NCBI GenBank assembly: GCA_964474445.1
Contig: CAYYSJ010000004.1
Location: 185-64,184 of the forward strand
Length of the DNA stretch: 64,000 bases
DNA from: an uncultured Gammaproteobacteria bacterium
GTDB taxonomy: Bacteria; Patescibacteriota; Microgenomatia; Levybacterales; UBA12049
Reading direction: 5' to 3'
The first letter of the stretch is position 1; every line of letters begins with the position of its first letter. The translations under genes were made by a program, and so were the position numbers. Below, piece by piece: positions 1 through 52,327 of the stretch. The notes beneath the pieces were generated by a model that made no database searches, was not told the DNA's origin, and saw only the letters and a program-made list of their open reading frames with translations.

Positions 1-954
1 AGCTGATGTGGCTAAAGGGAAACATCCCAGACTCCCAATTAAGGCCTCTAAATCAAGGCTAAGTTTACAAGGAAGTCAAGATCCATAGACACCCAGGAAG
101 TTGGCTTAGAAGCAGCCACCTTTTAAAGAAAGCGTAACAGCTCACTGGCGGATGGTTCTTGGCGCCGGAAATTACGGAGGATTAAGCCTTGTGCCGAAAT
201 TGGAGAATCTAATTTAGATTGGTAGGGGAGCGTTGTATGCGCAGTGAAGCGGAACCGTAAGGTTTGGTGGAGTACATACAAGTGAGAATGCCGGTATGAG
301 TAGCGTGAGCGAGGTGAGAAACCTCGCCACCGAATGTCCAAGGTTTCCTCCGCCATGTAATTCAGCGGAGGGTTAGTCGGCCCTAAGGGTGTGCCTCGTA
401 TAAAGGGGTGTAGCCCGATGGATCAGGCGTTGAAATTCGCCTACAGAGTATTGTTATTGTAAGGGCGTGACGAAGGTGGAAAAACTAAGCTACCGCAAGG
501 ATAGTGTAAGTGGTAAGGAAGAAGTGATTGGCAAATCCGTCATTTTGTTTATTTGAGCCACGATGCAAAGTCTCGTAAGAGACAATTTAGTACGTTTCAG
601 CTTCCGAGAAAAGCGTCATTATGACAGTCGCAAGGCTCGTCAAAAGCAATATTTTACCGTACCGTATAACCGACACAGGTGGACAGGTCGAGTAGACTAA
701 GGTGATCGAGAGAAAGTGGATCAAGGAACTAGGCAAAAAAGCTGGGCGTAACCTATGGGAGATGCCCTGCCGCAGCAATGCGGCCGCAGCGAAAGATTAT
801 TTAGCGACTGTTTATCTAAAACACAGGTCCCTGCAAAACCGAAAGGTAACGTATAGGGGCTGACGCCTGCCCAGTGCTGGTAAGTCAAATATCTCTGGTG
901 AAGCAGCAATGCCAGCTTAGGATATAAGCTCCAGTAAACGGCAGCAGTAACTAT

Positions 955-1909
955 GATAAAGTCGTAGTTGTAAAACCTAGCTAAATGCTGGAACATCTGT
1001 ACCGTACAAACGGTTGAAGTATCTGGCGCTACTATGCTATTGTAAAAGTGTAGTGAAAATGCGTTCAGTGCAGACAATCAGCAGGAAAGGCTTTAGCCGA
1101 GAAGATTTGGGCTATTTCCTTGCAGGATTTGTTGAAGGGGAAGGAAGTTTTAATGTATCGCTTCGAAAAAAGAGCGATTACAAAGTTAACTGGCAAGTTG
1201 TTTTAAGCTTTAATGTTTCTCAAAAAGATATTACGGTTCTTTCTGTTCTACAAAAAGAACTAGAGTGCGGAATCATTAAAACAAGAAAAGATGGCTTGCA
1301 TTCCCTAGATGTAACAAATGTGCAAGATGTATTAACCAAAGTTATTCCATATTTTCAGAACTATCCTTTACTCTCTCAAAGTAAAATCACGAATTTTCTT
1401 ATTTTTTCTTCTATAGCAAAACTTGTTGAGCAAGGGAAACATAGAGAAAAAGAAGGTTTAAAGGAAATTTTACTTTTAAGAGAAAAACTAAATGAAGGTA
1501 AAGGGAGAAAAAGAAAGTATGAGTATAGAGATGTCTTCTTAAGCTAAAGAATCCTCAGAGACTATATGCTGGGATCTCAAAATTTGAGATATGATATAGT
1601 CCGACCTTGGTAGCGATACCAAGAGACGTATATAATCGTCCTTGTAACAATGTGAACTGTTCTATGGTGACTAACTTCGTTGCCTTAGAGAGTGTGTTTT
1701 AGAAATCCAACTATATGCTGGAACAACTCAGTATCCAACAGTACCAATTTTGGTAACAATCTGTTGGTGGAGTCGATCAGCAGGGAAGATCCTACGAGAA
1801 ATTGAAGGAAACCCTCAGAGACTACATGTTGGACCCGAAAGGGAAGATATAGTCCGAACTTACTGGCGACAGTAAGAGGTTCTGATTATTCAGGACAGTA
1901 ACATTATTG
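955..1909 (+). mobile_element. Group-I-type intron in 23S rRNA (E. coli ~L1917/L1931 region) carrying a homing endonuclease gene; boundaries approximate, may be composite of two introns
   Basis: The conserved 23S sequence stops after ...GTAACTAT (954, ends in U as required for group I 5' splice site) and resumes at AGCGAAGTTCC (1910) after an intron-terminal G. The intervening ~955 nt contains a LAGLIDADG ORF and a ~75-bp internal direct repeat. The conserved 14 nt AACGGTCCTAAGGT expected between the two exons was not found, so the exact exon/intron structure is unresolved. Confidence 0.7.
1014..1547 (+). CDS. LAGLIDADG homing endonuclease (single-motif, intron-encoded)
   Basis: 177 aa; clear LAGLIDADG motif 'LAGFVEGEGSF' near the N-terminus; lies entirely inside the rRNA intron; Lys/Arg-rich C-terminus typical of DNA-binding homing endonucleases. 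Confidence 0.85.
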   Translation: MKYLALLCYCKSVVKMRSVQTISRKGFSREDLGYFLAGFVEGEGSFNVSLRKKSDYKVNWQVVLSFNVSQKDITVLSVLQKELECGIIKTRKDGLHSLDVTNVQDVLTKVIPYFQNYPLLSQSKITNFLIFSSIAKLVEQGKHREKEGLKEILLLREKLNEGKGRKRKYEYRDVFLS

Positions 1910-2380
1910 AGCGAAGTTCCTTGTCGGGCGAGTTCCGACCCGCACGAAAGGCAGAATGACTGAATAACTGTCTTGATCCATTACTCGGCGAAATTGAGAT
2001 GGCCGTGAAGACGCGGCCTAGATATGCATGGACAAAAAGACCCCGGGAGCTTTACTGTAGTTTGGCATTTGGGAGTTCATTTTATATGTTTAGAATAGGA
2101 GGGAGCTTAGGCAATAGTGAAATACCTCTCTTTGGAATGAACAACCATCACCTCTGCCCGCATAAAAATTCGGGAGGGGAACAGTGCTTGATGGGCAGTT
2201 TAACTGGGGCGATTGACTCCTACAACGCAACGGAGTCGTACAAAGGTTGGCTAGCTACGGATGGAAATCGTAGCGATAGCGCAAACGCAAAAGCCAGCTT
2301 GACTGCGAGACATACAAGTCGAGCAGGGACGAAAGTCGGTGTTAGTGATCTTCCGACGCTTAGTGGTAGGCGCGGAACTT

Positions 2381-2413
<33 letters not shown>

Positions 2414-2456
2414 GATCGCTCCCAAGCGTCCACAGCGACGGGGCGGTTTGGCACCT

Positions 2457-2787
2457 TATATGAAAATATCGGGGCGCCTTACTTGTAAAAGTATAGCCTG
2501 GATTATCTATTGAAAATTAACCCATGCAATAGAGATTAGAATTAACTAGCTCAAATCGGTGAACTCCAACTGTGTGTTGGACAACACCGAGGGAAGTCGG
2601 GAAGTACTACTGAGTACCTCCTTGACCCTGTATCGACTGATTCATACTGAGTTTATCAAAGTATGATGAGATAGAAGCTCTTCGTTCATTTTTTGAACGA
2701 AAATCTATAGCTTCTATAATACGGCTAGCTCCTCAGACAACTGAGGATGAAGGGATAGTCAAGACTTTTGGTAACAAAAGAATAATG
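2457..2787 (+). mobile_element. Second ORF-less group-I-type intron in 23S rRNA (E. coli ~L2500 site)
   Basis: Conserved 23S ...GGTTTGGCACCT (to 2456, ends in U) is followed by 331 nt of non-rRNA sequence ending in G (2787), then exon resumes exactly with CGATGTCGGCTCATC (2788). Confidence 0.7.
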
Positions 2788-3026
2788 CGATGTCGGCTCA
2801 TCCTATCCTGGGGCTGGAGAAGGTCCCAAGGGTCTGGCTGTTCGCCAGTTAAAAAGGTACGCGAGCTGGGTTCAGAGCGTCGTAAGACAGCTCGGTCTCT
2901 ATCCTGCATATCCGTCGAAATTTGAGAGGGTTTGGCCCTAGTACGAGAGGACTGGGCTGAGGGAACCCCTGGTGCGCCGGTTGTTTGCGAGATTGCAAGC
3001 ACCGCCGGATAGCTATGTTCCTAACT

Positions 3027-3057
<31 letters not shown>

Positions 3058-3290
3058 AGGCCTCAAGATAAGATTTCATGTCGTAAGACGAAGACCCCTG
3101 GCAGATCACCAGGTTGATAGGCTGGCGGTGGACGCACAGTAATGTGTTGAGCCTACCAGTACTAATGGTCAACGAGTAGACTTAAAGTAAAATTTTCTTC
3201 TCTTCCTTGTCAAAGAGCTGAAATAGGCAATAGCTATAAAATGTTTGTTGTCTAAGTTCTTTACAACTAAATGAGTTTTGTGTTGAAGCT

Positions 3291-3403
3291 TCGGTCTCTG
3301 GAGCGTAGTGGCACCACCTCTTCCCATTCCGAACAGAGAAGTGAAACACTTCAGCGTTGACGATACTGAGCTGTAGAGCTTGGGACAATAGATCGAGGCC
3401 GGG
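3291..3403 (+). rRNA. rrf: 5S rRNA
   Basis: CCATTCCGAACAGAGAAGTGAAAC (loop C consensus CCGAAC..GAAGTGAAAC), terminal helix cggtctc/gaggccg pairing; immediately downstream of 23S. Confidence 0.85.
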
Positions 3404-3426
3404 ACTTGAACACAAAACTAAAGAGA

Positions 3427-35312: not shown

Positions 35313-35384
35313 TCGGGAATATGGGCCAGGAGTAGGTCGGTAATACGCCTCATTCGCATTGAGGAGATGGGCGGTTCAATTCCG
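35313..35384 (+). tRNA. tRNA-Ala (anticodon CGC)
   Basis: Manually folded cloverleaf: acceptor GGGCCAG/CTGGTCC with G3:U70 Ala identity pair, AC stem cctca/tgagg, loop ttCGCat, T-loop TTCAATT. Confidence 0.75.
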
Positions 35385-35497
35385 CTCTGGTCCACAGGAG
35401 CAATATCTATCAAGTAGTAAATACCTAGCATTTAGGATTTTTGGTTTCTGTCTCTTTATACTTAGTACAAAATATTTTATACTAAATACTCATTCTT

Positions 35498-35570
35498 GGG
35501 CCGGTAGCTTAGCTGGTAAAGCGCCACTATGGCATAGTGGAGACCGAGAGTTCGAGTCTCTTCCGGTCCA
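35498..35570 (+). tRNA. tRNA-Ala (anticodon GGC)
   Basis: Acceptor GGGCCGG/CCGGTCC (G3:U70), D-arm gctt/aagc with AGCTGGTAA loop, AC stem ccact/agtgg, loop atGGCat, T-arm GAGAGTTCGAGTCTCTT. Confidence 0.8.
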
Positions 35571-40762: not shown

Positions 40763-43700
40763 TTAGTTGATAATAAGCCAGTTAAAGGTGGTATCAATAT
40801 ATTGTTGGACTGGGATGCCCACTGTAAAGGACTTCCCACCAACTTGTCGAAGAAGATATGGTGTATAGGTCGTCTGGCCAACAGGCGTAATATAGATAAG
40901 AGACTTATCTGTCACCAATGGGTCATCAATAGTGACTTCCGTCTGGTGTGCTTTAATAGCTGCAGTACCAGCAGAGCCAGTTGCAACTACTTCTTTATCA
41001 CTCATTGCCAGAGCTGGTTGTACTGCATTGAAGTTAAGCTTTGCGATATTTGCTGCTCCAGATGCGATGACATTTCCAAGCTGGTCTATGTTGAAGATAC
41101 CAGAACCAGATGCATTCTGAACATTAAGAGTACTGGTTGCAAGAGCTGAGGCAGATGCTGAATTATCTCCAAGTCTTAAAGTGAGGTCTTTGTTATTAGC
41201 TAGTGGGGTAATAACATCTGCAGCCAAATTCTTTGCAAAGACTGCATTTCCTCCAACAGTTAAGTTACCATTGGTATCAATTGCGACAAGTCCTCCTTCA
41301 AAGACAACGTTTCCTTGTGCAAGACTTTGGATTTGGAATGTTCCACCTAAGACATTGACGGAATTGGCAGCGAGTATCAGTTGTGTTCCAATTGCCAATT
41401 GTCCCGTCACTGTCGTATCGGCAAGGGAAGTGGTACCAGTTGAGACAAGTCCCTGACCAAAGGTTGCCGTTGCTGCAGAGAGGTTTGGCACATATGCTAA
41501 GAAGCCAGAATACGAGGCTATGTTGGCATATCCTATCTGAGGACTTAGCAATCCTGAATTCGTGCTGCTAATAGAACTAGAGCCTATAACTGTATTCATC
41601 GGAGTAACGTTAGCAGATGGTGTGGCAAAGTAAATATTGGTGATATTTGTGATGTTTTGAGCAGATAATGTACCCACAGTTGCTTGAAGTCCAACAATGC
41701 TGTTAGCCTCAATTCTATTGGCGTGAAGTGTGCCAGAGACCGTAGCATCGCCATTTACTGCAAGATTTTGTGAGTTTAATTTTCCAGAAAATGTTGCATT
41801 ACCTGAATTATCGAAGCTAGCCACGGTTTGCTGTGAAATGGAATTCTTCACGCTTAGCCTGGAGTTTTCCAGGTTAAAAGCGATAGCTGAGGTAGACGCA
41901 AGTGGAGAAATAAGATTGGTGTGAATCTGGTCGACTTGACCAATGGGGGAGAGTGTTCCGTTTCCCCGTCCAGCCAGAACATCATTTACAATACCGGCAA
42001 CATAGTCATGTAGACTTTGTCCAGCAATAGAGACATTGTTGGTTGTAACAGCCAGACTCCCTGTAAGAACTTGTTGTGCTTGAACAGATCCTGCTCGAAG
42101 ATTCCCAACAACCAGCTCTAAGAAAGCACCCATTCGTGATACCGGATTGCCTAACACATCATTTAAGCTGTAATAGTGAGGAATAGTAAAGTCTGCAGAT
42201 GGAGAGGCATCAGTAATCTGCAGATCTCCAGTTGTAGCAAGGTAGACTTGTGGATCATACCAAGTTGATGTAGCATAAACATAGACTTGTCCACAAATTA
42301 CATTTGCTGGAGTTCCTGCAGGACAGGAGACAATCCCAACTTCTCCTGGTTCTCCATTTGAAGGGTCAAAGTTTTGCATTGCTTTCCCAACAATAAATCC
42401 TGCTTGAGTTGCTTTCATCCCATATCCTGCGATATTACTTGATGTAATAGCATCACCAGTTTTAATTGGGCCATTAATGGTAGAAACATAAACGGGTGCA
42501 CGACCAGCCAAATCAATTGGAGGACGATTGCTAGGAGTAATAGTAGAATTCTTACTTACAGTGACATGGTTTTCTTCAATAATAAGTGCTGGATGAGTTG
42601 AAGCAACACCTAATATTGCATGAGAGTAGGCTGTAGTAGTTTTTTGTACTAGTTTGCCGTTCGTAGATTCAGTTGTCCGTTGTGCTGCAGAAACGGATGC
42701 ATCGTAGTTTGTAATATCTATACCATTCCATGTCTTATCTGGTGAAGTTTCCACAATTTCACCAGGAGTGATAATTTGGTTCGACTTGTAAATTTCTGCG
42801 TAGTCAAAACTATGCCCAGAACCATCTAGGAAAACTGTTCCACCTCTCCAATTGATAAAAACGGGAGCAATACTCGTACAAATATTTACTCCCTGTAAAT
42901 ATCCACCACCATTGCTATTATCAGCGCCCATGTATAAGGTGTAGTTACCACAACCTCCACCATTTGCATCAATTTCAACACCATTATTTGCATGTTCATT
43001 GTTATTCCTATTACCAGTGTTATGATTATTAATATCTACCCAGTCTGCAGTGCTGTCATTCCCTATATTTACTTGGCTATCATTTCTAACACCAAAAACA
43101 TAACCATTGTTTCTATTATAGAGTCCAAAAACAGTGCCTCCTAAGCCTCCTACACCTGGTCCTAATGCCCACACATGGTCATTGCCGTTTGTTGAGGTTG
43201 GATTGCTTCCCACAGCTGTTGCTCCACTAATAAAAGCAATACTCGCTTCACTATTACTGCCTGTATCTGCAACTTGGAATACCCCCCATGGAGATGTCGT
43301 ATTCACAACAACAGTTTTTTGATCTGCTCCATTACCATTAATATATACCTGTTGTGTTGGATTAGTTGTTCCAATACCTACGTTGCCAGAACTATTGATC
43401 CATAAGGCATTATCATGGAAGGACTCGCTGTAGGTATTCGCATTCAACGATGTAGGTAGAACAGCAAACAGATTTTGCCATGCATCGCTACCACTTGCAG
43501 TATTATGGTAAAGGAAATTCCAGTTTGCATTTGCGCTTTCATTTGTTCCTCTTTCGTTGAAAAAATATCTGTTTAGATCTAGCTCATCACCAAAGATAAC
43601 TTGGTTGACACTCCAATTACCATTTCTATTTCCTCGTAATTCTAAGGTGGGAGCTCCAGAAGATTGGTATAATTGCAATTGATAGTTGGGATTCGCAGTC

Positions 43701-46700
43701 CCTATCCCTACTTGCCCATTAATAAGTGCCATTGTTGAACTTCCTGCTCCTCCATTGGTGTTGAACAATAGGTGTTGACTTGTTCCCTGTACTCTTAAGA
43801 CTAAATCATTTGCAATTGTATCGGTTGAATATTGACCACCTGAAGTTGCTAGTCCAAGTAGTCCTTCTACTGTGCCAGAGTTGTCTATAGCTATTCTTGG
43901 TGCATTTGTTCCGTTGAGGGTGATACCGGTGGCTACAGTCGTTGTATTTATATATAAGCTGTCAGTTGGATTCGTTGTCCCTATACCAACATTTCCTGCA
44001 ACGACAAGAGATGTTCCGGATGCTGCTGGATCTAAGAAGTAATTGGTGTTCTGTAAATCTTTAAATGAGGATGCTGTGATAACACCAGTATTACTTAATA
44101 TAAACTGTGTTGCTCCAGATGCTGAAGCTGTCATGATATCTCCTGCACCAGGCTGGTTAACCGTGATTGCTGCATTAACTCCTGTTGTATCTATGTTAAG
44201 AATAGTATTCCCAGATGCATTCTGAAATTGCATTGCAGTTGGGGAGTTGACAAGGGAGCGGGAGAGAAGATTACCATTACTATCAACTCGGAATGCGTCA
44301 GCAAATCGAGCAGAAGAGGTTGCTCCAAAAGCAAGATTATCAAGTCTTGTTGAGAGTTGATTTGTCACTCGAAGGACAGAGTCAATATTCACATTAGACT
44401 GGGTAAGATTTGTGCCAAATGGATTGTAGGACGATGCAAGAACTTCTTTGAGAAGGGTATCTTGTGTTTCCATCCACGTGTTTCCTGATCCTGCATTATT
44501 GGATCCGATAATAAGTCCTATGCCATTGCCATAGGATTGGCCAGCAGCAATACTTTGAACAAAATTATTATTGACACTTGTACTCCATGCTGTACCAACA
44601 TCGTCTTTAGTATTGATAGAAGTTGAATATAAGTCGGTTACTGTATCTGAATCAAGCCCAATAACAGAAACACCCCCGCCTTGAGTGCCGACATAAAGCT
44701 GACCGTTCTGCATATTTGCAGCAACTGCTGAAACATTGGAGTTTCCGTTTGCCAATTTCTGATTTGAGTCTGCTCCTGTTACAACTCCTCTGATTGTTTT
44801 ACTGGTATGATTTTGTAAAGCATGATATCCAACTTGATACATATGGATAATTGCTGAAGGAGTAAGAGCACTTGCTTTCACAAATGGTCCATCGATAGAG
44901 CCAGTAAACTTAGTTGATCCATCTCCGCCTGCCCCAATGCCGAAATTAGCTGTCCCAACTACAATAGAGCCTGAGGTTGTGAGCGAGCCAGCTAGGATAC
45001 CATCCCGATAGAGTTTGAAGGTTGTTCCGTCGTATGTTACCACAGCAAAATGCCAGTTATTATCATTGGACGTTTGAGTATCATCAATAATTCTTGTGCC
45101 TCCATTATTGATGGCTGCTCTCAGTTTACCAGCAGCAAGATCACCAATAGACAAAAGGTATGCAGGGGTTATTGAAGAGCCATCCCATTTAGTGACAATC
45201 CTTCCAGTGTTACCACTTGTTTTGTACCATGCTCCGTAAGACCAGGTCGTACCTCCAGAGTCAAGCTTAGATGCCCCTCCACAAGCAGCATTAGTACAAG
45301 ACAAATAAGCGGTTGACCCGTCAAACGTTAACGCTGTCCCCCTCACACCTGATGCAGAATAGGTAACCGATCCATTTGCCGTAAGGGTGATGCCTTTGAC
45401 TGATGCATCGTTGATATTTCCTGATGTTTCGTTGAATGGCCACATCCCACGTGTATCTCCCACCATATCATCAGTAATATAGTTACTGTTGTAGTACTTT
45501 ACAGAAGCGTTGGTTGGATCTCCTTTCTTGAGCTGGAAAGCCATAACAGATCCATTACTACCTTGAGCTCCAAGATAGACAGTATCAGAGATGCCATCGA
45601 CGATTGATGTACCTTCTGTCACAACCATAGAAGTTGGAACAAAGGTTGCGGATGTACTTGCAGGCCCGGCAGTCAAGGAAAGGGAAGAGAAAGTATTATT
45701 ATCTGTTGTTGTTGCACCATAATTTGTTGTTCCACCCTGATTAGCATAAACCTCATCAAAAAGAGTGTTATTGCCAGAACCATTCTGTGCGTTGTACTTA
45801 ATCTTTAAAGCATAGTTAGAAGCAGTCGATGAATTACCAACAGTGGCATATAATGTTCCTCTTGAGGTAAGCCAGACATTTTGAGCATTAGCATTTGGAC
45901 CGAAGTTGGCAACAAGGCTCAGTAGTGACTCATTAATAAGCGTAACAGCTCCATTAGTGCCACCGGCCGTTGCAAGGACAATATACGTTTGACCATTTAT
46001 CACGTTCACTGCCACATCATTGATGGTTGCATTTGGTGTATTGAGATAGATATTAGGCATCAAAGTGTAGGTTGTTGTGCTATTTCTTCCTGAGATGTTG
46101 GTATTTGAATTCACAAAGTATTGTCCAGCATTACTGGAAGATAGGATCTTATAAGAAGTATCATGCTTGAAATCAATAACGTAGAAGCCTCCTACTGAGC
46201 CATTATTCCCAAAGTAAATTTCTCCATTAAGAGCGGCAATACTGGAGCCAGTAGAATTAGTGGTTGGACCAATCATTTGCTCGGTTGCTCCAGAGCCTTT
46301 GTTAAATGCCATCCATAAAGAATTATCTTTTGCATCAAAAATATATAAATTAGTTGTGGTGACGACGAGGATTGCTTTTCGTGGGAAAGCCTGCTGGCCA
46401 CATCTGGTATTTGTCCCAATAACACAGGTATCAGCTGTGGTTCGAGACTCGTTGTACCAAGAAGATGCGGGAGCCTTGTCATCATTTGTCCAACGACCAC
46501 CATCTGAGTCTTTTGAGGTATCATAGAAAAGAACTTTTTGGATATTTGAAATACTTTGGAGATTTTTGTGCCCACCAATAGTGAGGTCTCGATTATCAAG
46601 AGTCATGTATGAATGATCTGATGAGGCAACATTAATAACCTTGCTCGCAGCAGGGAGAACTCCTGCATTGTTATTAACTTTTGGATCATTTGGTGTAATC

Positions 46701-49700
46701 GCAACAGTTCCAATATTGACGCCTGATCCAAATACCTGGAAATGAGCAGAGGCAGTTGAATTACCCCCTATTACTAAGTCATTGTTTGTGTTTGAAGGAG
46801 CAAGTACGCCACCATTGGAAAGTTGCCAGAATCCAGCAATACCGCCATTGGCAGGAGTGACAATTTGTCTGACATAAAGAGTATTCCACTCTTTACCGCC
46901 TTGTGTTGGATCAGAGCCTAAATTATAGGTATCTGTTACATTTGGAATAAGACTATTTTTAATAGTACCGTCATTAGCAATGGTAAAAAGAGGAGTTCCG
47001 GATGTAGATGCAGTAAAGACGTCTCCTAGCCCAGATTGATTAACAACAAAGGTCGCATTGCCAAGAGAGTTCTTTGAAATAGTAAGCCCACTTGAAGCAA
47101 GGGGGGATGTTGTCCCTATTCCAACACTACCACCGTTATTGATGTATAAGCGACTAGCATTATTTAGTACATCATAAATATTAAAGTAGTCAGCAGTTGT
47201 ATTTGGGTCATACACTTCAAGTTTAAATCCACGGAACTGATTGTTTTGTGGGGATATACGTATTGACCCATAATTATCTGTTACTGGTCTTTGTCCGATT
47301 ACAAGGTTATCAAAATTAGGATCAATAGTACTGGCTGTTGCTGATATTATCGCTTGCCCTCGAACATCAAATTTTGCACCAGGGGCGTTTGTCCCAATGC
47401 CAATATTACTGCTTGCTGCAAGGAAGAGAGATGGAGTGGAAAGTGTTATTCCTTTATCTCCACCAACTGAATTATAGAAGGCAAGAGTACCGCCATTAAG
47501 GGAGTTAACTGCAGTTGCAGAGCCTCTAAAGGTTATATTTCCTGATGTACTTGCTGTTCCAGCTGGAACTGTTCCTAAGTCATTTGTATAGGAATTGCTA
47601 AAGATTTGGAACTTTGCAGAAGAAGTAGACGTCCCACCAATTGCTAGGTCATCGGTAATAGTAAATGGTGAAACAACCTGATTAAACCTCTGCCAGAGAC
47701 CATCATAAGTCCCAGATATAAAAAGATTTGTGATGTAGGCTGAGCCAAAGTTGTTTGTTGCTGAGCCTAAGTTAATAGTTGCAGCGGTTGGAATAATACT
47801 ATTTGAGAATTGGCCATTTGGGAAAATAGTATTTGTACCTGATGAGCCAAGGATGAGATTTCCTCTAAAGGTATTTGTTCCATTTGCATTTCCCAGATTT
47901 ATTCCATTTGTTGCCCCTCCACCGATATTAAGAGTAGTTGCTGTAGTATCAAAGAGCCCAACTGTGCCTTGAGTTGTTTTAATATTTGCACCACCTAATG
48001 TGAGGTCCCCATTGTTATTCAACTGAAGCTGAGTTGTGAGGCCACTATCACCACCCACTGAAGTTTGAACTTTCAAGATACTACCGTTTAATAAGTTAAC
48101 ATTAGTCATTGCTCCTCTAAAGGAAAGTCCTCCGGATGAGGTGGCTGTGCCTGCTGTGTTGATTCCTTGGGTGGTGGCAAACACTTGCCAAGGAGTGGCA
48201 GAGCCTGTTGCGTTACCACCGACTGCTAAGTCATTCCATGCGTTGACGGGGGAGAGGACGTTACTTGTTAATTGCCAGAACCCTGATGTTCCACCGCCAA
48301 CTGGTGCAATGAAGTTATTTGCATAGACAGTTCCCCAATAGTGAGTTGGATCACCAAGGTTAATCGTTGTTGATGAAGGTAAAACATTCTGGTTAACCAG
48401 GCCGTTGATGGTTACTGTGTTGCTTGTATTTGTTCCTAGAGTAGTATTCCCATTCACAGACAAAGCTCCTTGCACTGTTGTTGTTCCGCTTACATTGCCA
48501 ATATTGAGTGTTGTTGCTGCTCCACCAAAGGTGATTGAGGTTGGAGTACCAAAGAGTGTGAGTGTTGAACGATTATCATCAATAGTTGGTGTTCTAAAGG
48601 TTGTCGTTCCCGTTGTTGCACCAATCGTGAGTGTTGATGCAGAACCTGCAAAGGTAAGATTAGATGGAGTCCCAAGTAGAGTAAATACACTTGTTGTTGT
48701 ATCAAGAGTTGGTCCATTGACTATGACATTGCCAGTAGCATTATGAGGAGTAAGAGTAATATCACCTGTTGTGCTCCCGCCAACTGTAAGGTTTGCAAAG
48801 TTCGCTGTCTGAATGGTTCCATTTGCTGTTATATAGGTAGAATTTCCGTTCAATCCGCTTGAAACAGATGCAGTTGGTGTTCCAGATCCTATCATGTTCA
48901 GGACAGCAAATTTTGCGGAATTGGTTGCGCTGCCACCAACAAACAAATCAACTGTGCTATTAACCGGATAAATTGCACCGTTAATAGTATCAAGCGTCCA
49001 CCAGCTTCCATTTGTTCCAGTACCGCAACTTCCCCAAGTAGGATTTGCTCCACCAATAAGACATTGGTTCGTTCCTCCTGTTGGTGTTTGTTTAAACAGT
49101 CCAGTAGTATCTGCGTAAAGAACACCACCATTATTGGTATAATTTGTAGATAAAATAGCCCCAGAGTTTTGGAGTCTGAATTTGGTTGTACCAGAAGATG
49201 AGGCCGTTAATAAATCGCCAGCAGAATTCAAAACATTAATAATTACCCCTGCATTTCCTAACGTATTCTTTTCTATATCTAAAGCAGTTGCAGTAAAAGG
49301 TGCAGCTCCAATCCCAAGTGTTCCAGTAATTTGTGATGCCCCAGCACCATTGACATTAAGTGTCCCAGCAATTTGTGATGTTCCCGTACCGTTGACAGTA
49401 AGTACTCCTGCAATGGTGAGAGCACCAGCATTGGTAATCTTATTTGAAGAACTGAAAAATTGGATGTCTCCTCCTGTTGTATTTGTGCCAAGCGTGATTG
49501 TTCCTGTTCCGGCTAAGATAGCAAGAGTATTATTGCTTGTTGTCGTAATTGTTGGATTCGTACCGGTAAGAGCAACCGTTGCAGCAGCAAGGCTGACTGT
49601 TCCTAACCCATTATTTGGTGAAAGGGTAATACCACCAGTTGTATTACCTCCAATGGTAAGTGGCAAACTATTCGTTGTTTGGACACTGCCTGTAGTGTTA

Positions 49701-52327
49701 AAAGTGAGGGTACCTGCACTTGTTGCATTTCCCGTAGTGGCAAAGATTTGAAATCGAGCAGTGTTTGTTGCTGTTCCACCGATTGCCAGATCGTCAGTGA
49801 TATTGGTAGGAGCAAGTACTCCGAGTGTTCTTTGCCAAAAACCAGATATATTTCCACCGGAAATAATGTTTTTCACATAGAGATTATTCCATTCGATAGA
49901 GGATGTTCCCAGATTATATGTATCTGTTGCCCCTGGGATAATATTTCCGTTGACTGTCACGCTGCCTGATCCATTATTCGGAGATACTATAATATTACCT
50001 GTTGAGTTTCCACCAAGGGTGAGTGGTTGATTTTTTGTTGTTTGGATAATACCTGCACTATTGAGCGTTAGGTTTCCAGCAATAGAAGCGGTTGGAGTTC
50101 CAGAGCCAGGTGTGTTATTTAAGAAAGCAAAATTAGCAGAGGAAGTAGATGTTCCCCCTAAAAAGACATCTAGAGTGGAGTTAAGAGGGTAGAGTGAGCC
50201 ATTTGAAAGAGTCCAAAAGTTTGAAGCTGCACAAGGACTCCAAGTTGGTGCTGTTCCTCCGTTGGAGGTAAGACATTGTCCTATGCTTCCTGCTGCTGTC
50301 TGCAGGAAGAGTCCTGTTGCGTCAGTATAAATAACTCCTCCTGCTGTTGTGTAGTTGGCTGATGATATAAAGCCTGTGTTGCCAACAGTAAATTTAGAAA
50401 CCCCACTACTTGACGCGCTAATAAGTGGCCCTGTTCCGGTTTGATTAATAGTGACTGCAGATGCAGCACTTGTTGCCAAAACAGCAAATAAGCTATCGAC
50501 CTCAACAGCGTGAGGTGCTGAAGGGAAATTACCATTGAAGGTAGTATTTTGGAGTGGTTTTTGTACGTCTATAATACCTGATCCATCTGGAGCGAGAGTA
50601 ATATTACCATTTGTTCCAGAGTTGGTATTGAGAGCGAGAGTATTGCCAGCAAGAGTAAATTGTCCACTGGTTGACTGAAATGTTGTAGATGCTCCAATAC
50701 TTAAGTTTCCAGAAGAATTGAGGGCTAAGATAACATTCGTTGTACCTGCTCCTGATTGGGTGATAGGGGGCATCCCTTGGAGTGTTTCTGAGTTGGTTGC
50801 ATAAGCAACTGTTGCCAATTGTTGACGGGGCGTTAATTCTGGTGTTGATCCAACAGTGATACCCAAATACAAGTTCTGATTGTTAGCAAACAATGATTGT
50901 GGAATTGTTGTGCCTCTTCCTAAGAGTATGGAAAAAACACCATTATTGTCAGGAGTAACACCATTTACTTCTTGCCAAAGCAATGCTGAGGCTGAGGACG
51001 AAGGGTCGGAATAAATCGCAAATCGCAAGTTGGTACTTGCGGTAATGGGAGAATTTTGACTATCTGTCAGTCGTCCTTGGAAGGACATGATTCTGGGCGG
51101 TGCTGTTGCTGCCAATGTTGGAGCTTCTTTTGGTTTGGCAATAAAACTATTATAGAGACCAAATCCAATGGCGGTACAAAAGACAATAAGAATTGCCCAG
51201 TTAAAGTAATGAGCTAAAGCATATGTGTGATACTTTCTGTACCAGTTAGGGCGGGTGTAGCGAACATGGTGCCATGCCTTTCTATACCAAGGGAAATGCT
51301 GTATAGATATTGCTTGAGGAGCATAGAAAGTCTTTGGGAGATTATGAGTCTGAAGCAATGGGTTATGAGCAATATTTGCAATTTGAGATTTAAGATTTGA
51401 AATTCCCTTAACATTCGTAAAAAGAGGTTTGCCTTGTATCTTCCACAGCTGTTTATGAATTAAAAGAACTCCTTTGGTGATTGGTATAATCATAACTGTC
51501 TCAAGAAGAAAATCTATTCCTCTTTCCATTTTTTGCATAAGTCGTAGAGGAGGGAAGGAAGAGTACTTCTTAACGATTAAAGGATTGTTGTCTTTTGATC
51601 CATTTTGACTAGTATTTATACTATTTTCTAGCAGAGGCTCCGGGTTACTGCTATTAAGAACTGGCGTTTCATTTAGGTTGCCAGGAATTGCTATCTGTGA
51701 AGAAAGGTATCCTTGCGTATTTGCCCAGGCAAGATATTTACGAAGAGAAGAAAGTTTTCGGTTAATTGAGGTGGCAGAAAAGGCTCCTGTTTCGAGAAGT
51801 CTCAACTTGTACTCTTCCAGAAGAGGGTAAGAAATATAATGAAAAACATTTTTCTCATCTACGCCTGCAGCTTCTTTTATCCTTGAAGTTTCTTCAACCC
51901 ATCTCAAGAACTGTTTCACATCAATGATATAGTTTTTTATAGTAAGACGACTTGCGTTATAGACATATAAAAAATCTTTAAATTCTTTTATTCTCCAGGG
52001 ATCTTGGTGAACTTGTGCTACTCGAGAGACAACTTCATCAAAAGGAGACTGGGCAATAACTCCTTGCATTTTTAGTGCGTGAAAAAACTTATGAAGTGAA
52101 GAAATATGCCTTTCGATTGATCTCACGGAATACATAGAAGATTTTTGAGCTTTAAATTGATTAATAACAGCAAGTGTTACTTCATTAGGTTGAAATGGTT
52201 TGGCAAGTTGTGCTTCGCACCAGGAGATAAAGTGTTTTACATCTACGATGTAATTCTTCACTGTTGAGTGTGATGGGGTTGGTTTTTGTAAAAGTAAGAA
52301 ATTTTTAAAATTTTGAATAAATTCCAT
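40763..52327 (-). CDS. Giant (3854 aa) surface protein: two cytoplasmic tyrosine-recombinase core-binding (SAM-like) domains + TM + repeat-rich extracellular region + conserved C-terminal module
   Basis: Uninterrupted 11.5-kb ORF. Residues ~1-210: tandem 'S..TVKNYIVDVKHFISW…SIERHISSLHKFFHALKMQGVIAQSPF' / 'LTIKNYIIDVKQFLRW…SINRKLSSLRKYLAWANTQGYL' (Phage_integrase N-terminal SAM-like pattern). TM 'YALAHYFNWAILIVFCTAIGFGLY' at ~aa 375. Then Gly/Thr/Asn/Ser-rich beta repeats incl. recurring 'TDTYNLGS…W..LY……GFWQ' motif (x4). C-terminal 'DYAEIY…PGEIVETS…LGVASTHP…IDLAGRAPVYVSTINGPIKTGDAITSSNIAGYGMKA' shared with 19472-22705. Confidence 0.85.
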   Translation of the reverse strand: MEFIQNFKNFLLLQKPTPSHSTVKNYIVDVKHFISWCEAQLAKPFQPNEVTLAVINQFKAQKSSMYSVRSIERHISSLHKFFHALKMQGVIAQSPFDEVVSRVAQVHQDPWRIKEFKDFLYVYNASRLTIKNYIIDVKQFLRWVEETSRIKEAAGVDEKNVFHYISYPLLEEYKLRLLETGAFSATSINRKLSSLRKYLAWANTQGYLSSQIAIPGNLNETPVLNSSNPEPLLENSINTSQNGSKDNNPLIVKKYSSFPPLRLMQKMERGIDFLLETVMIIPITKGVLLIHKQLWKIQGKPLFTNVKGISNLKSQIANIAHNPLLQTHNLPKTFYAPQAISIQHFPWYRKAWHHVRYTRPNWYRKYHTYALAHYFNWAILIVFCTAIGFGLYNSFIAKPKEAPTLAATAPPRIMSFQGRLTDSQNSPITASTNLRFAIYSDPSSSASALLWQEVNGVTPDNNGVFSILLGRGTTIPQSLFANNQNLYLGITVGSTPELTPRQQLATVAYATNSETLQGMPPITQSGAGTTNVILALNSSGNLSIGASTTFQSTSGQFTLAGNTLALNTNSGTNGNITLAPDGSGIIDVQKPLQNTTFNGNFPSAPHAVEVDSLFAVLATSAASAVTINQTGTGPLISASSSGVSKFTVGNTGFISSANYTTAGGVIYTDATGLFLQTAAGSIGQCLTSNGGTAPTWSPCAASNFWTLSNGSLYPLNSTLDVFLGGTSTSSANFAFLNNTPGSGTPTASIAGNLTLNSAGIIQTTKNQPLTLGGNSTGNIIVSPNNGSGSVTVNGNIIPGATDTYNLGTSSIEWNNLYVKNIISGGNISGFWQRTLGVLAPTNITDDLAIGGTATNTARFQIFATTGNATSAGTLTFNTTGSVQTTNSLPLTIGGNTTGGITLSPNNGLGTVSLAAATVALTGTNPTITTTSNNTLAILAGTGTITLGTNTTGGDIQFFSSSNKITNAGALTIAGVLTVNGTGTSQIAGTLNVNGAGASQITGTLGIGAAPFTATALDIEKNTLGNAGVIINVLNSAGDLLTASSSGTTKFRLQNSGAILSTNYTNNGGVLYADTTGLFKQTPTGGTNQCLIGGANPTWGSCGTGTNGSWWTLDTINGAIYPVNSTVDLFVGGSATNSAKFAVLNMIGSGTPTASVSSGLNGNSTYITANGTIQTANFANLTVGGSTTGDITLTPHNATGNVIVNGPTLDTTTSVFTLLGTPSNLTFAGSASTLTIGATTGTTTFRTPTIDDNRSTLTLFGTPTSITFGGAATTLNIGNVSGTTTVQGALSVNGNTTLGTNTSNTVTINGLVNQNVLPSSTTINLGDPTHYWGTVYANNFIAPVGGGTSGFWQLTSNVLSPVNAWNDLAVGGNATGSATPWQVFATTQGINTAGTATSSGGLSFRGAMTNVNLLNGSILKVQTSVGGDSGLTTQLQLNNNGDLTLGGANIKTTQGTVGLFDTTATTLNIGGGATNGINLGNANGTNTFRGNLILGSSGTNTIFPNGQFSNSIIPTAATINLGSATNNFGSAYITNLFISGTYDGLWQRFNQVVSPFTITDDLAIGGTSTSSAKFQIFSNSYTNDLGTVPAGTASTSGNITFRGSATAVNSLNGGTLAFYNSVGGDKGITLSTPSLFLAASSNIGIGTNAPGAKFDVRGQAIISATASTIDPNFDNLVIGQRPVTDNYGSIRISPQNNQFRGFKLEVYDPNTTADYFNIYDVLNNASRLYINNGGSVGIGTTSPLASSGLTISKNSLGNATFVVNQSGLGDVFTASTSGTPLFTIANDGTIKNSLIPNVTDTYNLGSDPTQGGKEWNTLYVRQIVTPANGGIAGFWQLSNGGVLAPSNTNNDLVIGGNSTASAHFQVFGSGVNIGTVAITPNDPKVNNNAGVLPAASKVINVASSDHSYMTLDNRDLTIGGHKNLQSISNIQKVLFYDTSKDSDGGRWTNDDKAPASSWYNESRTTADTCVIGTNTRCGQQAFPRKAILVVTTTNLYIFDAKDNSLWMAFNKGSGATEQMIGPTTNSTGSSIAALNGEIYFGNNGSVGGFYVIDFKHDTSYKILSSSNAGQYFVNSNTNISGRNSTTTYTLMPNIYLNTPNATINDVAVNVINGQTYIVLATAGGTNGAVTLINESLLSLVANFGPNANAQNVWLTSRGTLYATVGNSSTASNYALKIKYNAQNGSGNNTLFDEVYANQGGTTNYGATTTDNNTFSSLSLTAGPASTSATFVPTSMVVTEGTSIVDGISDTVYLGAQGSNGSVMAFQLKKGDPTNASVKYYNSNYITDDMVGDTRGMWPFNETSGNINDASVKGITLTANGSVTYSASGVRGTALTFDGSTAYLSCTNAACGGASKLDSGGTTWSYGAWYKTSGNTGRIVTKWDGSSITPAYLLSIGDLAAGKLRAAINNGGTRIIDDTQTSNDNNWHFAVVTYDGTTFKLYRDGILAGSLTTSGSIVVGTANFGIGAGGDGSTKFTGSIDGPFVKASALTPSAIIHMYQVGYHALQNHTSKTIRGVVTGADSNQKLANGNSNVSAVAANMQNGQLYVGTQGGGVSVIGLDSDTVTDLYSTSINTKDDVGTAWSTSVNNNFVQSIAAGQSYGNGIGLIIGSNNAGSGNTWMETQDTLLKEVLASSYNPFGTNLTQSNVNIDSVLRVTNQLSTRLDNLAFGATSSARFADAFRVDSNGNLLSRSLVNSPTAMQFQNASGNTILNIDTTGVNAAITVNQPGAGDIMTASASGATQFILSNTGVITASSFKDLQNTNYFLDPAASGTSLVVAGNVGIGTTNPTDSLYINTTTVATGITLNGTNAPRIAIDNSGTVEGLLGLATSGGQYSTDTIANDLVLRVQGTSQHLLFNTNGGAGSSTMALINGQVGIGTANPNYQLQLYQSSGAPTLELRGNRNGNWSVNQVIFGDELDLNRYFFNERGTNESANANWNFLYHNTASGSDAWQNLFAVLPTSLNANTYSESFHDNALWINSSGNVGIGTTNPTQQVYINGNGADQKTVVVNTTSPWGVFQVADTGSNSEASIAFISGATAVGSNPTSTNGNDHVWALGPGVGGLGGTVFGLYNRNNGYVFGVRNDSQVNIGNDSTADWVDINNHNTGNRNNNEHANNGVEIDANGGGCGNYTLYMGADNSNGGGYLQGVNICTSIAPVFINWRGGTVFLDGSGHSFDYAEIYKSNQIITPGEIVETSPDKTWNGIDITNYDASVSAAQRTTESTNGKLVQKTTTAYSHAILGVASTHPALIIEENHVTVSKNSTITPSNRPPIDLAGRAPVYVSTINGPIKTGDAITSSNIAGYGMKATQAGFIVGKAMQNFDPSNGEPGEVGIVSCPAGTPANVICGQVYVYATSTWYDPQVYLATTGDLQITDASPSADFTIPHYYSLNDVLGNPVSRMGAFLELVVGNLRAGSVQAQQVLTGSLAVTTNNVSIAGQSLHDYVAGIVNDVLAGRGNGTLSPIGQVDQIHTNLISPLASTSAIAFNLENSRLSVKNSISQQTVASFDNSGNATFSGKLNSQNLAVNGDATVSGTLHANRIEANSIVGLQATVGTLSAQNITNITNIYFATPSANVTPMNTVIGSSSISSTNSGLLSPQIGYANIASYSGFLAYVPNLSAATATFGQGLVSTGTTSLADTTVTGQLAIGTQLILAANSVNVLGGTFQIQSLAQGNVVFEGGLVAIDTNGNLTVGGNAVFAKNLAADVITPLANNKDLTLRLGDNSASASALATSTLNVQNASGSGIFNIDQLGNVIASGAANIAKLNFNAVQPALAMSDKEVVATGSAGTAAIKAHQTEVTIDDPLVTDKSLIYITPVGQTTYTPYLLRQVGGKSFTVGIPVQQYIDTTFNWLIIN

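Follow-up and report, generated by a model that had tools for sequence, protein, structure and literature searches.

Two group I introns around a 14-nt micro-exon in helix 69 of the 23S rRNA gene of a probable CPR bacterium

Is a conserved segment of helix 69 missing from the 23S rRNA encoded at the start of the DNA analyzed here (a stretch of 64,000 nt, referred to as the window), or does it lie unnoticed within the sequence that interrupts the gene? The original prediction had an rRNA exon end at position 954 (GTAACTAT) and the rRNA restart at 1910 (AGCGAAGTTCC; AGCGAAGTTCCTTGTCGGG), read everything in between as one intron carrying a homing endonuclease gene, and stated that the 14 nt that should join the two exon ends are not recognizable anywhere in 955-1909. 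It left three options, namely, L1917-like and L1931-like introns around a diverged micro-exon, an atypical helix 69/70 region, or an unusual splice junction. We conclude with high confidence that 955-1909 consists of two group I introns, inserted after the equivalents of Escherichia coli U1917 (intron A) and U1931 (intron B) and flanking a 14-nt micro-exon, in a host that is probably of the CPR type; the first option thus stands, and the other two are excluded.

Results

The window begins inside a bacterial 23S rRNA gene, which matches the Rfam model LSU_rRNA_bacteria over window positions 1-3184 with 1267.6 bits. Its long exons lie on the + strand at 1..954, whose last nucleotide is equivalent to E. 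coli U1917, within the helix 69 loop; at 1910..2456, from E. coli-equivalent A1932 to U2500; and at 2788..3184, a 3′ exon that runs up to the gene end and is covered by the Rfam LSU match. A 5S rRNA follows downstream at 3290-3404. Both the LSU match and an Infernal alignment bear out the predicted exon end at 954 and restart at 1910, and in the exon 1..954 the Infernal alignment identifies the 5′ strand of helix 69 as AGCAG(U) (GUAACUAU). Alignments with E. coli and with the consensus of the Rfam LSU model show insertions directly after the equivalents of U1917 and U1931; U1917 was placed by the E. coli numbering of helix 69, in which positions 1911, 1915, and 1917 are pseudouridines. The two insertion sites are 14 nt apart, in agreement with the L1917 and L1931 intron lineages. 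Elsewhere in the window, we found two tRNA genes on the + strand (35323-35394 and 35498-35570; Rfam tRNA, 48.6 and 63.2 bits) and a 3854-aa ORF on the - strand at 40763-52327, and several other large ORFs (782, 1077, and 1126 aa) had no NCBIfam match.

At 1655..1668 on the + strand, the window reads AACTGTTCTATGGT, which as RNA is the micro-exon AACUGUUCUAUGGU, equivalent to E. coli 1918-1931, which contains the helix 69 3′ strand together with the subsequent junction. It is identical to E. coli AACGGTCCTAAGGT at 11 of 14 positions. Such a match alone lies within chance, the 64-kb window containing four matches with at most three mismatches vs. 3.41 expected; for the 955-nt interval on one strand, the chance expectation is about 0.025. 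The 5′ strand of helix 69 is AGCAG here vs. GGCCG in E. coli, and two of the three differences between the 14-mer and E. coli are exact complements of these 5′-strand changes: A1906-U1924 and A1909-U1921 replace the G-C and C-G pairs of E. coli, and therefore all six helix 69 pairs are standard. A covariance-model alignment had been named beforehand, along with the original prediction, as the analysis that might refute it. Run on 800-2460, Infernal returns GUAACUAU, a 701-nt insertion, ACUGUU (1656-1661), a 247-nt insertion, and GAGCGAAG, with ACUGUU placed as the helix 69 3′ strand, and so finds the 14 nt as a micro-exon. Another candidate, first picked out by eye (TAATCGTCCTTGTAAC, 1632-1647), was rejected, as it forms the 3′ side of a hairpin at the periphery of intron A (GACG...CGUC) and varies in relatives.

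We then compared related loci, which were obtained through homologues of the endonuclease. The 14-mer (AACTGTTCTAYGGT, ending in ...TAAGGT in L026) is kept in all of these loci where it is searchable, with diverged intron sequence adjoining it; at position 1928, most relatives have T, four have C (L012, L019, L020, and L022), and L026 has A. Twelve loci are devoid of intron B (L005, L010, L012, L014, L015, L017, L019, L020, L021, L022, L024, and L027), and in these the 14-mer directly adjoins AGCGAAG. BLAST alignments of the window exons pass through it unbroken. Moreover, the predicted 35-nt ligated junction, GCAGCAGTAACTATAACTGTTCTAYGGTAGCGAAG, can be read without a break in the DNA of at least 120 metagenomic contigs, inside 23S genes that are 81-89% identical to the window exons, and in one contig (L093) a single alignment block spans all three junctions. 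We thus assign the 14 nt as a micro-exon on the basis of the compensatory pairs, the Infernal placement, the conservation, the contiguity in intron-less alleles, and the splice-site anatomy described below. Contrary to what had been supposed, nothing is missing from this rRNA: the 14 nt are present at 1655-1668, are aligned by Infernal as helix 69, and leave that helix fully paired when spliced in.

Intron A, at site L1917, is a group I intron of 700 nt (955..1654, + strand) with G1654 as its terminal G. Its P1 joins 948-956 to 962-970, where UAACUAU|GA pairs with UCGUAGUUG and a U954·G964 wobble lies at the 5′ splice site, and its core comprises P3 (976-981 with 1568-1573), P4 (986-991 with 1078-1083), P7 (1558/1560-1564 with 1597-1602), P8 (1574-1590), and P9 (1606-1623). 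Rfam detects the 3′ part of this core (1465-1623) as a partial Intron_gpI match of 22.6 bits (E = 0.003), which remains below the gathering score as a result of the core being split by the ORF. With the ORF removed, the ribozyme halves on either side of it were aligned for 20 loci. Across these 20 relatives, the fold has 57 pairs; 96.5% of cells are paired, and both partners have changed in 27 of the pairs. RNAalifold returns P1, P3, P4, P5 with an extension, P8, and P9, and the ORF-deleted core folds into P1, P3-P6, P8, and P9. In several relatives, the sequence ACAGUU, just 5′ of the intron A guide, perfectly complements the micro-exon start AACUGU, forming a P10 that is weak in the window (AAAGUC vs. 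AACUGU).

Intron B, at site L1931, is a group I intron of 241 nt without an ORF (1669..1909, + strand), with G1909 as its terminal G; both introns therefore end in G, and both 5′ exons end in U. Rfam assigns 1633-1876 to Intron_gpI (RF00028) with 53.3 bits, vs. a gathering score of 50, and E = 1.9e-12. P1 joins 1662-1670 to 1680-1688, where CUAUGGU|GA pairs with UUGCCUUAG with a U1668·G1682 wobble and a U1665·U1685 mismatch, and the other helices are P3 (1706-1711 with 1828-1833), P4 (1716-1721 with 1777-1782), P7 (1818/1820-1824 with 1850-1855), P8 (1834-1843), and P9 (1859-1876). When 11 L1931 introns lacking an ORF were aligned together with the adjoining exon sequence, the corrected fold comprised 61 pairs. 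Of the cells, 97.6% are paired vs. 35-41% in slid controls, both partners have changed in 32 of the 61 pairs, and none of 500 shuffles reaches the observed covariation score. P1 is 100% paired in the 11 sequences except at 1665/1685, and P7 covaries from G-C to A-U and C-G. An alternative returned by RNAalifold, in which ACUGU of the micro-exon pairs with the 3′ strand of P7, was discarded, as all its columns are invariant and it displaces P7, whereas the canonical P7 covaries. P2 is not clear in the window intron B, and introns of the L009 type have an extra hairpin after P1; the L1917 and L1931 lineages have been classified as structural subgroup IB4, or as IC1-like without P2. With two covarying ribozyme cores, each having its own P1 and terminal G, the initial reading of 955-1909 as one intron does not hold.

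The guide of intron B tracks exon position 1928: A in the exon goes with U in the guide in L026, and U1928 goes with A in the guide in L009, L011, L013, L016, L023, and L025. In this CPR lineage, 23S position 1928 is U (sometimes C), not A, and the guide of the window-type L1931 intron still fits the canonical A1928, giving the U·U mismatch in P1; in a second type of L1931 intron (L009, L013, L016, and others), the guide has the matching A. Intron B is sporadic among close relatives, being present in L006 and L008 and absent from L005 and L027. In another relative, L011, two pieces of a different LAGLIDADG gene, with broken reading frames and 31-38% identity to the window enzyme, lie in the L1931 intron (836-1433, 598 nt) and look like an endonuclease gene in decay. 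These remnants fit the usual decay cycle of endonuclease genes, with the 241-nt intron B as an end state.

The endonuclease gene of intron A lies on the + strand at 1059..1547 and encodes 162 aa from the ATG at 1059, the form that is the database product (P0001, 100% identity). The ORF list also bears out the predicted 177-aa ORF with the motif LAGFVEGEGSF, as a longer form that starts at a TTG (1014-1547). The gene is located within the loop of P6, its 5′ end extending over strands of P5, P4, and P6. As predicted, it encodes a single-motif LAGLIDADG homing endonuclease (I-CreI/I-CeuI type): residues 36-133 of 177 match one LAGLIDADG_1 domain (Pfam PF00961; E = 3.8e-22, 79.5 bits vs. a cut-off of 23.1), and among PDB sequences the two halves of the two-domain enzymes I-OnuI and I-SmaMI are matched separately (E about 1e-36), with LAGFVEGEGSF aligned to LTGFADAEGSF and LAGFTSGEGCF of I-OnuI and the acidic E conserved. 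The search for homologues returned 1033 at E <= 1e-10, many of them 66-86% identical. Among species-representative genomes, the family is almost confined to CPR/Patescibacteria, its carriers including Levybacteria, Gottesmanbacteria, Woesebacteria, Collierbacteria, Amesbacteria, and WWE3. In the intron-less target sequence (...GCAGCAGTAACTATAACTGTTCTATGGTAGCGAAG...), two-fold symmetry around 1917/1918 or 1931/1932 was no better than in shuffles (4/11 and 5/11 positions), and the sequence thus gives no sign of the site that a homodimeric enzyme would be expected to have.

A third group I intron, of 331 nt and without an ORF, occupies site L2500 (2457..2787, + strand). It follows E. coli-equivalent U2500 in the context TTTGGCACCT|TATATG...AATAATG|CGATGTCGG, and is thus preceded by U and ends in G; its Intron_gpI match in Rfam (2447-2781, 33 bits, E = 6.9e-07) falls below the gathering score. 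L004 lacks an insertion at this site (TTTGGCACCT|CGATGTCGGCTC), as do many metagenome alleles, whereas L002 has one. In some relatives, the 23S gene has more LAGLIDADG genes downstream (L004, 4668-5171; L022, 3987-4460; L026, 3620-3982), which are 34-40% identical to the window enzyme and presumably belong to introns at other sites. In several related introns, a terminal A, not the canonical G, precedes the 3′ exon (L008, 3353; L017, 3115; L025, 2227 and 3085; L026, 3327). These terminal-A introns recall Coxiella, in which an intron reportedly lacks the canonical terminal G.

The distribution of the endonuclease hints at exchange between the two neighboring introns. One family, defined at 60% identity or more, resides in the L1917 intron of 22 fetched loci and of the window, and the same family is found in the L1931 intron of two CPR genomes, L023 and L025. 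In L025 (1876-3085), an ORF-less L1917 intron of 352 nt is followed by the same 14-nt micro-exon and then by an endonuclease-bearing L1931 intron; in L023 (1-1018), an endonuclease-bearing L1931 intron likewise follows the micro-exon, and of the upstream intron the locus covers no more than the 3′ end. These L1931-resident enzymes share 64-65% identity with the enzyme in the L1917 intron of the window (E = 1e-62), and they fall inside the L1917 family. As for the ribozymes, a test for module exchange gave one-sided support: the L1917 intron of L025 bears the P5 extension typical of L1931 introns, and the L1917-type P5 extension is not clearly present in the L1931 intron of L025. The reversed layout suggests that adjacent introns recombine, exchanging the endonuclease gene or ribozyme modules, and may share one enzyme. 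That the twin introns behave as one composite mobile unit exchanging its parts is an idea that we put forward tentatively and consider rather doubtful at present.

The best matches of the window 23S exons are Levyibacteriota MAGs, at about 84%. Because its closest rRNA and endonuclease relatives are CPR, the host is likely a Microgenomates-type CPR bacterium, and the CPR host guessed originally is consistent with these relatives. The gene content of the window (including histidine kinases, Rho, RadA, and the 3854-aa ORF) is not diagnostic. We also considered a Chlamydiae-like host, given a SycD/LcrH-like TPR protein and the reported precedent for an L1931 intron in Simkania, and set it aside, as the relatives of both the rRNA and the endonuclease indicate CPR instead. 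Five MAGs titled "uncultured Gammaproteobacteria bacterium" (L007, L011, L013, L015, and L017) have a CPR-type 23S gene with these introns and the CPR variant of helix 69; their Gammaproteobacteria labels are probably wrong.

Based on these data, we propose a model in which each intron would recognize its own 5′ splice site through pairing of its internal guide sequence with the preceding exon, the guide GUAGUUG of intron A with UAACUAU, and the guide GCCUUAG of intron B with CUAUGGU of the micro-exon, in each case with a U·G wobble at the cleavage point. In the precursor, both introns would lay claim to the 14 nt, intron A through P10 and intron B through P1. After both splicing events, the mature rRNA would read ...GCAGCAGUAACUAU-AACUGUUCUAUGGU-AGCGAAG..., with a fully paired helix 69 restored. 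That the introns splice, in a given order and without skipping of the micro-exon, is what we infer from this arrangement. The intron A enzyme would act as a homodimer and cut intron-less alleles, allowing the intron to spread by homing, and intron B would have lost an endonuclease gene of its own and persist as a bare ribozyme. Exon co-conversion accompanies intron homing, and as intron B lies only 14 bp from the insertion site of intron A, homing of intron A may co-convert it.

The model presumes that both introns still splice. If one or both no longer did, the rRNA would be fragmented, the insertion would be retained, or the operon would be a pseudogene. The U·U mismatch in P1 of intron B and the weak P10 of intron A in the window would be in keeping with such a loss, and there is a precedent for an unspliced group I intron in the 23S rRNA of Simkania, reported as such in the title of Everett et al. 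1999 (cited in PMC11270868). We nevertheless consider this improbable, given that the core helices are all intact and covarying in both introns, that both junctions have the canonical U and terminal G, and that the exons score like a normal bacterial LSU. Judging from ribosome structure, helix 69 cut in its loop and at its base would also be hard to tolerate unspliced. In addition, CPR rRNA insertions are reported as removed from transcripts, in passages of a survey that cite Brown et al. for this (PMC11270868). The reading of 955-1909 as a single 955-nt intron or insertion, with the 14 nt truly absent or helix 69/70 atypical and the 14-mer a chance resemblance, could appeal to the 11/14 match being within chance for the whole window and to a local Rfam search of 860-2010 that gave no separate LSU match for the 14-mer, but we regard it as vanishingly unlikely and, at the level of sequence comparison, as already refuted by the compensatory helix 69 pairs with their Infernal placement, by identical 14-mers between diverged flanks in relatives, contiguous with the 3′ exon in 12 loci, by the exact occurrence of the ligated junction in at least 120 intron-less alleles, and by two separate covarying cores, each with P1 and terminal G.

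Discussion

Twin introns at L1917 and L1931 have already been published in Synechococcus sp. C9, in a Navicula plastid, and in a 2024 survey of CPR. Haugen et al. 2007 (PMC1995217) described three introns in the 23S gene of Synechococcus sp. C9, at L1917, L1931, and L2593, all of which contain a single-motif LAGLIDADG gene. Like C9, the window has group I introns at L1917 and L1931 and three introns in one 23S gene. The L1917 introns are also alike, with 743 nt and a 181-aa single-motif protein in C9, and 700 nt and 162-177 aa in the window, and with an ORF that overlaps ribozyme core helices in both (PMC1995217). Unlike C9, whose introns all carry endonuclease genes, the window has a 241-nt ORF-less ribozyme at L1931; its third intron lies at L2500 instead of L2593, and its host is probably CPR-type, not a cyanobacterium. 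In the plastid rrl of Navicula vanseea, IB4 introns with LAGLIDADG genes have been described at L1917 and L1931 (PMC11019260). This is the same pair of sites with the same 14-nt spacing as in the window, but in a plastid genome and with ORFs in both introns. Since the site pair is the same in Synechococcus sp. C9 and Navicula, they have the same 14-nt exon.

Coxiella burnetii offers a related arrangement: according to the title of Raghavan et al. 2007, cited in PMC11270868, its 23S gene has group I introns on both sides of a 34-bp exon. There, the introns are Cbu.L1917 and Cbu.L1951, with 34 bp between them, vs. L1917 and L1931 with 14 bp in the window. Table 1 of PMC1995217 assigns the Coxiella endonuclease gene to L1951, and the Coxiella L1917 intron is classified in a different subgroup, IB2 (PMC11019260).

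Among CPR, the passages of the survey by Tsurumaki et al. 2024 considered here (PMC11270868) designate positions 1917, 1931, and 1952 as 23IS6-23IS8 and describe the insertions at 1917 and 1931 as recurrent, group-I-like, and mostly encoding single-domain LAGLIDADG_1 proteins. According to the same passages, the single-domain CPR enzyme I-ShaI cuts insertion-site DNA and forms homodimers, and the insertions were defined by comparison with E. coli and need not equal the spliced regions. The window shares with that survey, as represented in these passages, the 1917/1931 hot spots and probably the CPR host group, its enzyme having a predicted activity only; the passages give no description of a 14-nt micro-exon or of its pairing. 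The window thus differs from the known cases in detail only, by an ORF-less L1931 intron, an ORF-less L2500 intron, and a lineage-specific exon sequence.

Taken together, these results are mainly a correction: the rRNA is complete, and its helix 69 is intact after removal of both introns. A 14-nt exon with lineage-specific compensatory changes is easily overlooked by eye, and pipelines that call insertions relative to E. coli may merge two introns into one "insertion." Of wider, if minor, interest are the co-variation of exon position 1928 with the guide and the hints that an endonuclease is shared or swapped between adjacent twins. If the twin introns do form one composite unit, a single enzyme would maintain both of them by co-conversion across the 14-bp exon, and the endonuclease gene or ribozyme modules would move between the twins by recombination, such that the gene could escape a decaying intron.
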